This document shows, one piece after another, positions 6,001 through 9,000 of a DNA stretch of 27,666 nt. This DNA is from an uncultured bacterium. GTDB taxonomy: Bacteria; Schekmanbacteria; GWA2-38-11; J061. The position numbers were made by a program. Where the stretch lies: contig CAZJVM010000034.1 in the NCBI GenBank assembly GCA_964549305.1, positions 1 to 27,666 of the forward strand. Reading direction: 5' to 3'. How positions within the stretch are numbered: the first letter of the stretch is position 1; every line of letters begins with the position of its first letter.

Positions 6001-9000
6001 GAGAATTTTCAGAAAATTCTGAAGACCGTTTGCCTCAATCATTTTTTTCGGCAATCCGTATTCTTCGGCGAGTTTCAGGAAGTTTTCTCCCGATGATACG
6101 GTAATATTTACTGTGCCCCATGCCTGAAAACCCCGGGACTTTCCGAAACTCTCGAATTTATCCGTTACTGCGAATGAAATCCTGCTTCCCGAATCGATGT
6201 TTTCGAATTTTTCCCCCTCTTCGCTTACTATGAGAAATCTTCCCCTGACGAATTTATATACAAGAGGCGTTGCGCGCGGGATATTCTCTCTGCACGTTGA
6301 CAGCACGAGTGTGTTGTTATCTTTGATATATGATTCTATTGTGGCAAAACCCTTTCCTTTTTCAGTATTTTTCATCGATTTTCCTTTCAATTAAAATGAG
6401 CGCCTATTGTTGATATGTATAAACAAATAACTAAGGAATATTCTATCACTCTCCCTGCTTCGTGCAATAAGAGAGTGGACAAAAGGGATATCCGGTTGTA
6501 GAGTTAGCAGGGAAAAAATTACAGGACGATTTCAATGGATAAACTCAAAAACTTTTCACAAAACGAACTTCTCTTTGGCCACGACAGGGAAGAATCAATC
6601 GTCGCCGTTGAACTGGCGGGCGATTCTGTCGTAGAGATATTTAAAAGAGAAGATGGAAAACTTACATCGAGACAGGAAAATTTCGATCCCTTCATACTGC
6701 TTGAGAATGAAGATTACCTTGTTGAGTTAAATGAAAAATATGAAGTCAGAGAACTTGAAGGCGGCAACTTCTTCAGGTATTTAGTTTCCTTCCCCTCGTG
6801 GAGCGCCTGTCTGAGGGCTAAGGATTATCTCAGAAAACTGTCTCGTAAAACAATGTCGCCCCTCCTGTCTCCCTATATGTTTATCAATGACCCTGTGCAT
6901 CAATATCTTCTGTTGAGCGGCAAGACTCTTTTTAAGGGTATGTCAATGGGAGATATCCACAGGATTCAGCTCGACATAGAAACATATTGCGAAAAAGGGT
7001 TTGAGTTTTCAAATGCGGCAAGAAAAGGGGACAGAATCATATCCATAGGATTATCGGATAACAGAGGGTGGAGTTATGTGATTGACGGTTCAAAAAAAGA
7101 GGAACCGGAAATGCTTGAAGAACTCAATGACCTCATTGCTGAAAAAGATCCCGATGTTATCGAGGGGCATAATATATTTAGATTTGATTTTGAATACATA
7201 AAGACACGCGCCGGAATGCACAAGATTAAGCTGAAATGGGGCAGGGGAGGAAAAGCTGTAAAATCCCATTCTTCGAGGGTCGCCTTTGCCGAGCGGGCAA
7301 TTTCCTATCCAAAGTGGGATATTTACGGAAGGCACGTAGTGGATACATGGTTCTTGGCGCAGGCATACGATATATCGGCGCGCGAGCTCGATGAATACGG
7401 CTTGAAAAGCGTGGCGAAGCAGATGGGAGTGGCTTCATCGGACAGGACTTATATCGAAGGGAAAAGAATTGCCGAAATATTCGATACGAATCCCGAACAA
7501 CTTATGAAATACAACCTTGATGATGTCTTCGAAACAAGGGCGCTTGCCGGGATATTCGGAGAGGGTTATTTCATAGAAGCGCAGATATTTCCCTATTCCT
7601 ATCAGAATGTAATTATACGGGGAAACGCCGCAAAGATTAACTCTCTTTTTCTCCGTGAATATATTTACCGTTCTCACTCCATACCTCAAATACCCGGTGA
7701 GCGAAGCAATATCGAAGGGGGATACACGGATGTTTTTATTACAGGAATTGTGAAAAGAGTGCTTCACTGTGATGTGCGGTCGCTTTATCCATCTCTTATG
7801 CTGAATTATAACATTGGTCCGTCAAGCGATTCACTGCTGATTTTTCACTCCCTTTTAAAAGATTTGAAGGATTTCAGAATAAGAGCAAAGGAGATGGCGC
7901 TTTCGGAGAAGGATGATATAAAAAACAAATACTACGACGCTCTTCAGAGGGAATTCAAGATTCTTATCAATTCCTTTTACGGCTATCTCGCGGCAGGTTT
8001 TTCGAATTTTGCGGACTATGAAAAAGCGGGAGAGGTTACCGCGCGCGGACGGGATATCATAAAGAAAATGATAAAATGGTTAGAGGAGAGAAAATGCCGT
8101 CCAGTTGAAATCGATACCGATGGAATATATTTCATCCCTGCTGAAAATATAAAAGGCGCGGAAGATGAGGAGAAACTAATCAGTGAACTTTCGCAGTTTC
8201 TTCCCAAAGGAATCGAAGTGGAATTTGACGGAAAATACAGGGCAATGTTCAGCTACAAGATGAAAAATTACGCTCTGCTCGACTATAAGGGGAAATTGTC
8301 AATAAAAGGGTCGGGATTGAAATCAAGAGGACTCGAAAAATTTCAAAGGCAGTTTCTCAGAGAGATGATAAATCTGATGCTTACGGGAGAATTCGGTGAG
8401 GTGGAAAAACTTTACAGGGAATATATAAAAAAAATCAGGGGGCACGCCTTTGATGTCGAACTGCTCTCCAAGACAGAAACCCTTTCTGATTCCCTTGATT
8501 CATACAGACAGAAGGTTGTACTAAAAAAAAGAAATCAGTCCGCGCCCTATGAACTTGCCATAAAATCCGGAAGAAACTATCAGGCAGGCGACCAGATATC
8601 CTACTATGTCACGGGAAGTAAAAAAAGAGTAACTGTTTACGATAACTCAAAACTTACATATGAGTGGGACAGGAATGACCCTGACGAGAATGTGGAATAT
8701 TACTGCCGGAAACTTTCAGACCTGTATAAAAAATTCACGCCTTTCATAGAAACTTCGCAGGATTCACTCTTTTAGTTTCCAGGAAAAGAGACAGAGTCAG
8801 TTGTGCAAGAGATGAAGATATGAAAAAGAAATCATTATCTGATTTTTTGCTTTCGCGCGAATTAAAAATCTGAAAATACGACATTTCATTGTATGTATAC
8901 GGAGAGGCACTAAATTAAAAACGCGACTTTAAGCTGAAATTAACTCTATTATTACAGCAATCGTTAAGGCAATACCGCAAATTGCGGAAAAAGCATATAA

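Follow-up and report, generated by a model that had tools for sequence, protein, structure and literature searches.

A stand-alone Pol I-type 5' nuclease and a G3-group family-B polymerase in bacteria with truncated polA: a candidate replacement for the polymerase half of Pol I

In several unrelated bacterial groups, DNA polymerase I (Pol I) is reduced to its primer-removing nuclease, and a family-B DNA polymerase (PolB) is found alongside. In the genome studied here this polymerase is encoded at positions 6535-8775 of the window, i.e. the whole 27,666-nucleotide stretch that was analyzed, and we assign it to the G3 group of bacterial PolBs defined in PMC7544198. We consider it probable that G3 fills gaps in the manner of Pol I and permits polA to be truncated. 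The group is experimentally uncharacterised (PMC12926913) and has no known job in the accessible sections of PMC7544198 and PMC12926913, so that the replacement reading would be the first job suggested for it; this reading also links the role of G3 to a second question, namely which polymerase fills the gaps in bacteria without the Pol I polymerase. If true, a family-A enzyme has been displaced by a family-B enzyme in core bacterial replication several times over.

Polymerase inventory of the window genome and its phylum

The window genome (G000) is 100% complete and consists of 169 contigs with 3,700 N. The survey's finding that it has no PolA was borne out: profile searches for PF00476 (PolA polymerase) and PF01612 (proofreading) gave no match in G000, and a tblastn search with the exonuclease and polymerase domains of a sister's PolA returned nothing with E below 0.4. 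The sole Pol I piece is, as previously described, a solo 5' nuclease (FEN) of 284 aa at C59:3949-4803; it is closed by a stop codon in mid-contig and lies on a different contig from polB. It contains PF02739 and PF01367, and its residues D12, D62, E112, D114, D115, D137, D139, D184 and D187 are invariant in 41 solo FENs. Downstream of the FEN, a sensor kinase gene contains an N run (L002:5883-6656); its orthologues are about 490 aa long, so a part of this gene is missing from the assembly.

The 746-aa PolB with intact proofreading and polymerase motifs and a QDSLF ending was likewise confirmed. Both PF03104 and PF00136 were found in its open reading frame by Pfam profile search, and sequence comparison indicated that all the catalytic motifs are intact. 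The features of the locus are as follows.

6476..6504, + strand: candidate sigma70-like promoter TGGACA-17-TAGAGT, its distance conserved in G003 and G004
6535..8775, + strand: putative G3-group family-B DNA polymerase, 746 aa (P0001); Pfam exonuclease and polymerase domains, AF2 fold, phage matches
6973..6981, + strand: ExoI, D147-I-E149, invariant in 114 sequences
7168..7188, + strand: ExoII, HNIFRFD (D218), intact
7510..7524, + strand: ExoIII, YNLDD (Y326, D330), intact
7771..7794, + strand: polymerase motif A, DVRSLYPS, intact
7957..7983, + strand: polymerase motif B, KILINSFYG, intact
8107..8124, + strand: polymerase motif C, EIDTDG, carrying the glutamate that has been reported in G3, B10 and the N-terminal half of Pol epsilon
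8758..8772, + strand: C-terminal QDSLF, clamp-motif-like, in a low-confidence tail and not conserved across homologues

The promoter scan alone performs at chance level, and the evidence for the promoter-like element is its conservation ahead of polB in all three genomes of family f1 (G000, G003 and G004). The gene has housekeeping neighbours and a GC content of 41-43% (41% for the genome), with no sign of a prophage or mobile origin. Elsewhere in the window (9665-12309), three adjacent genes show weak matches to a ferredoxin-dependent bilin reductase, a CruF-like carotenoid hydratase and an oxygen-dependent coproporphyrinogen oxidase.

The combination of a solo FEN with PolB, which the survey had attributed to four genomes of the phylum, was recovered in all of them (97-100% complete; FEN frames of 284-288 aa). 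The fifth genome (G002, 70% complete; named G004 in the survey) has an 888-aa frame, is the only one of the five with PF00476 and gave no PolB match. DnaE was found in 5/5 genomes, with one copy in G000; a second DnaE-type gene, with a 796-aa frame, was observed at L271 (G004:C17). PolY was found in two of the five (G000 and G003), preceded by a lexA-like S24 peptidase gene (L265, G000:C158; L264 in G003), and the palindrome GAAC-N4-GTTC precedes the G003 cassette. When families A, B, C, X and Y were searched in G001 (99% complete), only one DnaE and the G3 PolB were detected. A motif scan for AEP/PrimPol and RNase HI gave no match and also missed recA, hence it was uninformative; the predicted PolB-FEN complex of G000 obtained a score of 0.00 and was counted neither for nor against the proposal.

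These data bear on the idea that the polymerase half of PolA exists in an unassembled part of the genome, or that PolY substitutes for it. The number of contigs and N in G000, together with PolY in G000 and G003, would be in its favor, but the FEN stops at the same domain boundary in 4/4 genomes, in a conserved context, G001 and G004 have no PolY, and PolX is missing from all five genomes. We regard this explanation as scarcely credible, and PolY, which the survey had named as another possible gap filler, is not a general one, being missing from two of the four PolA-less genomes of the phylum.

Assignment of the window polymerase to the G3 group

The window PolB was filed as G3 by its motif C glutamate, domain layout and phage matches rather than by a tree with labelled G3 references. 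The glutamate (E525) is present in 101/101 aligned homologues, at a position that would correspond to the published G3 column. The best phage matches are from Salinibacter (38%, full length), followed by Nostoc/Anabaena phages, and the accessible part of PMC7544198 lists G3 in phages of Salinibacter and Nostoc only. Among bacterial PolBs, G3 is the second-largest group, and it has been reported as the bacterial relative of Pol epsilon's catalytic half (PMC7544198, PMC12926913). As published, the group shares with the window PolB the domain layout, the intact exonuclease and polymerase sites, the motif C glutamate and the phage kin; a clamp motif is reported for the group, but it is weak at the C-terminus in the subclade of the window PolB. 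Among the named homologues, the closest carry the label Ca. Schekmanbacteria.

The AF2 model of the protein (pLDDT 91) has a PolB fold with N-terminal, DnaQ-like exonuclease and polymerase domains, and the closest solved folds are those of Thermococcales PolBs (TM about 0.75). E. coli Pol II (G1) is also a bacterial family-B polymerase with proofreading, and databases call homologues "DNA polymerase II", but its family score is far out of reach for the window PolB (124 bits against the NCBIfam cut-off of 570). The window PolB matches E. coli Pol II with an E value of 3e-13 and an archaeal PolB with 1e-33, and G3 proteins are 22-25% identical to the other, Pol II-like PolBs.

The proofreading site is damaged in 11/44 PolA-less G3 carriers, 10 of these being Verrucomicrobiia loci, and high fidelity would therefore be no general part of the G3 role. 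In a Verrucomicrobiia G3 subclade of about 690 aa, the proofreading residues and the ExoIII region are gone and the polymerase motifs are retained. Proofreading-less G3 genes were observed at L023, L029-L033, L035, L048, L050, L060, L062, L066, L088, L091 and L092, and those of these loci that were screened are without PolA.

Truncation of polA in the phylum and in other lineages

The survey had proposed that PolA and this PolB are mutually exclusive in the phylum. We rejected this claim as unproven: it rests on G002, in which the polB locus is probably unassembled, since the gene that follows polB in G001 is also missing from G002, and both genes occur together in sequencing runs. Runs X1 and X3 contain much of one f2-type polB locus and a full-length-type polA about 88% identical to that of G002, which is co-presence in samples rather than proof of a single genome; runs X4 and X8 contain small shares of L308 only and were left out of the count. 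Four f2-type G3 lineages are 75-80% identical, in line with the 73-79% among f2 FENs. We lean towards the coexistence of polA and G3 in that family.

The solo FEN of the phylum is a polA gene cut in place. The G001 solo FEN is 72% identical to the G002 PolA and 55% to the G000 FEN, and the upstream gene is common to G001 and G002. In the trees, the G001 FEN groups with two full-length PolAs (100/99), separately from the f1 solo FENs, and for this reason two truncations of polA within the order are likely, both in lineages with G3 inherited from the common ancestor. A single loss followed by regain in G002 is disfavored: the lineage relatives of the G002 Klenow part are at 90% and 77%, followed by a gap to <=58%, and no close outside donor was found for it.

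Solo FENs branch at no fewer than six positions of the FEN tree: twice in this order, and in a Binatia-like clade, the Methylomirabilota, the Scalindua-type Brocadiia and one large Verrucomicrobiota clade. Their monophyly was rejected on a 35-row subset (p-AU 1e-6), and both tree and synteny place solo FENs with the PolA N-terminus of their own lineage. Two Binatia-like genomes, G014 and G050 (L109 and L115), combine a solo FEN with a full-length PolA that is divergent, possibly by regain of polA or by mixing of bins. The loci L019, L027 and L040 are titled Syntrophobacter or Udaeobacter and cluster among Binatia-like sequences in the G3 or the FEN tree; their labels may be off.

Gene order bears on the proposed replacement of the Klenow half. 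The polA gene is followed by coaE in the Methylomirabilota genomes G244, G247, G251 and G254 and in the Brocadiia genomes G302 and G320, and the FEN lies directly before coaE in G044, G048, G252, G261 and G013. Three Methylomirabilota-like loci that form one small clade (G257, G322 and G323) have the order FEN-polB-coaE-rho, with the FEN stop and the polB start overlapping as GTGA, and no canonical PolA was found in these three genomes. G3 sits there in the slot of the lost Klenow half, because polB lies between FEN and coaE as the Klenow half does in relatives. A PF00476 match in G323 was rejected as Pol I, being a UDG-PolA fusion on a 1.8-kb contig; G164 and G068, considered as split genes, proved to be broken full-length polA genes.

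Co-occurrence with PolA was analyzed in 50 of the 80 nearest G3 loci (L063-L092 were left out, except L086 and L089), in genomes of unstated completeness. The canonical PolA polymerase domain was present in 19 and absent from 31, of which 3 gave weak matches only and 28 none. Among the 31, a FEN frame of <=429 aa was found in 27 (G009, G043 and G046 being partial or open-ended and G041 a distant paralogue), and 4 had no FEN match. In two unselected class samples of genomes >=90% complete, PolA was lacking in 1/39 around G028, in a genome with G3 and a solo FEN, and in 1/39 around G013, in a genome also without FEN; the Syntrophobacter sample consists of the same 39 genomes as one of these samples and is no separate control. 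G296, without PolA, G3 or FEN, was taken as an assembly gap. In the Methylomirabilota, 7/39 genomes lack PolA and all seven have G3, as do 23 of the 32 PolA-bearing genomes (including the unpublished G272), a contrast that is not significant (p 0.17).

An exclusion was observed in the Verrucomicrobiota. Among 151 genomes >=90% complete, including the centre genome G023, a canonical PolA was found in 67 and G3 in another 67; no genome has both, and 17 lack the two; four of the G3 carriers show weaker, non-canonical PolA-like matches only. The 17 genomes (0.9-3.9 Mb) have neither a canonical PolA nor a PF00136 match, and 16 of them have a FEN, scattered in the solo clade. In six genomes of that clade, G3 is missing and a PolA-type polymerase is encoded by a gene of its own. 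The counts would reflect about one truncation, several later losses of G3 and two places with a PolA-type gene and no G3, and the Fisher p overstates the association because the pattern traces to about one truncation. At L287:1394-5605 and L289:262-4545, in solo-FEN genomes without G3, such a PolA-type gene (709-720 aa, lacking a FEN domain) stands immediately ahead of a gene that presumably encodes an NAD-dependent ligase.

Clamp-like motifs were compared in the same sets. The clamp motif given in the survey for the window PolB, QDSLF, does end this protein, but as a shared feature it was not borne out: the G001 PolB has the ending KFRGFIN, and within the final 14 residues a strict QxxL/M/F-F/L is rare (4/44 PolA-less and 2/25 PolA-bearing G3 carriers; 8/105 closed PolB homologues, by sequence). 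A QxxL[FL] motif follows the FEN in 29/44 Verrucomicrobiota solo FENs, against 2/19 other solos. In the Verrucomicrobiota FEN loci L218-L262, clamp-like ends such as QGELF, QMDLF and QLSLF lie within the last 12 residues in 28/44, against a shuffle mean of 0.4. The clamp tail as a new invention of solo FENs was rejected, since the motif is already present in the linker of 8/14 full-length Verrucomicrobiota PolAs; Verrucomicrobiota Pol I may thus bind the clamp through its linker.

Proposed role of G3 and comparison with known systems

We suggest that, once G3 is present, polA can shrink in place until its essential part, the 5' flap nuclease, is left, and that primer removal and repair patches would then be split over two separate proteins. 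PolB would extend the nick or gap, presumably with strand displacement and possibly with some help of the clamp, the solo FEN would cooperate by cutting the flap, and ligase would seal. G3 would permit the loss of polA and would neither force it nor be strictly needed afterwards. The survey had already suggested PolB as the successor of Pol I in gap filling; its argument from exclusion within the phylum falls away, and comparison beyond the phylum gives the hypothesis reasonable support, namely through the truncations in other phyla, the exclusion in the Verrucomicrobiota and polB in the polA-coaE locus. More tentatively, and with slightly less than even confidence, we propose that bacteria have repeatedly rebuilt Pol I as a pair in the archaeal and eukaryotic style, a free flap nuclease with a Pol epsilon-related PolB. 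G3 would then be the standing polymerase for primer replacement and repair in several lineages, much of the Verrucomicrobiota among them, and in one clade would have taken the place of the Klenow half within the polA operon.

Another explanation is that the gaps which the solo FEN leaves are filled by DnaE together with the clamp, as is presumed for other bacteria that have no Pol I, G3 being a backup for repair synthesis or a bystander. DnaE is present in all five phylum genomes, loss of the Pol I polymerase function is reported to be survivable for some bacteria as long as the 5' nuclease stays (PMC12926913), and PolC has been proposed as gap filler in B. subtilis (PMC13220808). We consider this rival unlikely, but it stays live because of the 17 Verrucomicrobiota genomes with neither enzyme. 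It leaves unexplained why polB is coupled behind the FEN in the polA slot, why none of the 151 genomes has both PolA and G3, and why G3 is absent where a PolA-type gene accompanies the solo FEN.

It is less likely still that G3 serves as an accessory or damage-inducible polymerase in the manner of E. coli Pol II, associated with the loss of polA through shared ancestry in few lineages. G3 often coexists with PolA, as in the 19 nearest carriers and the 23 Methylomirabilota genomes mentioned above, and is carried by all Chlorobi (PMC12926913); additionally, the independent events are few, and the outside lineages were all reached through G3 carriers, which makes them a biased sample of polA losses. 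Against such a role stand the at least six separate truncations and the distance of G3 from the Pol II-like PolBs. Moreover, a search near the window polB revealed no GAAC-N4-GTTC box of the kind present at the G003 lexA-like/polY cassette, and the recurrent polB neighbours, judged by reading representatives, include no mutagenesis-type gene.

The proposed division of labor between G3 and FEN resembles that of Thermococcus, in which efficient Okazaki fragment maturation needs PolB, Fen1 and ligase (PMC4432273; PMC13136892), a non-replicase PolB acting with a separate flap nuclease. In contrast to Thermococcus, the bacteria described here have a Pol I-type bacterial FEN, a DnaE replicase and a PolB of another group (20-24% identity), for which the corresponding activity is predicted. 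G3 and the solo FEN are each known, and their pairing appears to be new: no link between G3 and the loss of polA was found in the sections of PMC12926913 consulted or in the literature searched, which was mostly open-access. A solo 5'-3' exonuclease without Pol I (PolA1 missing) has been reported for Tenericutes and Verrucomicrobia (PMC12926913). These bacteria resemble those studied here in both respects, but in the present case the solo FEN is a polA truncated in place, the genomes measure 2.7-3.6 Mb, and a candidate for the replacement polymerase can be named. In E. coli, the standalone nuclease Xni coexists with a full PolA. The same is true of FenA in B. subtilis (PMC13220808). Both are standalone Pol I-type 5' nucleases like the solo FEN described here, which, unlike them, groups with the PolA N-terminus of its own lineage.
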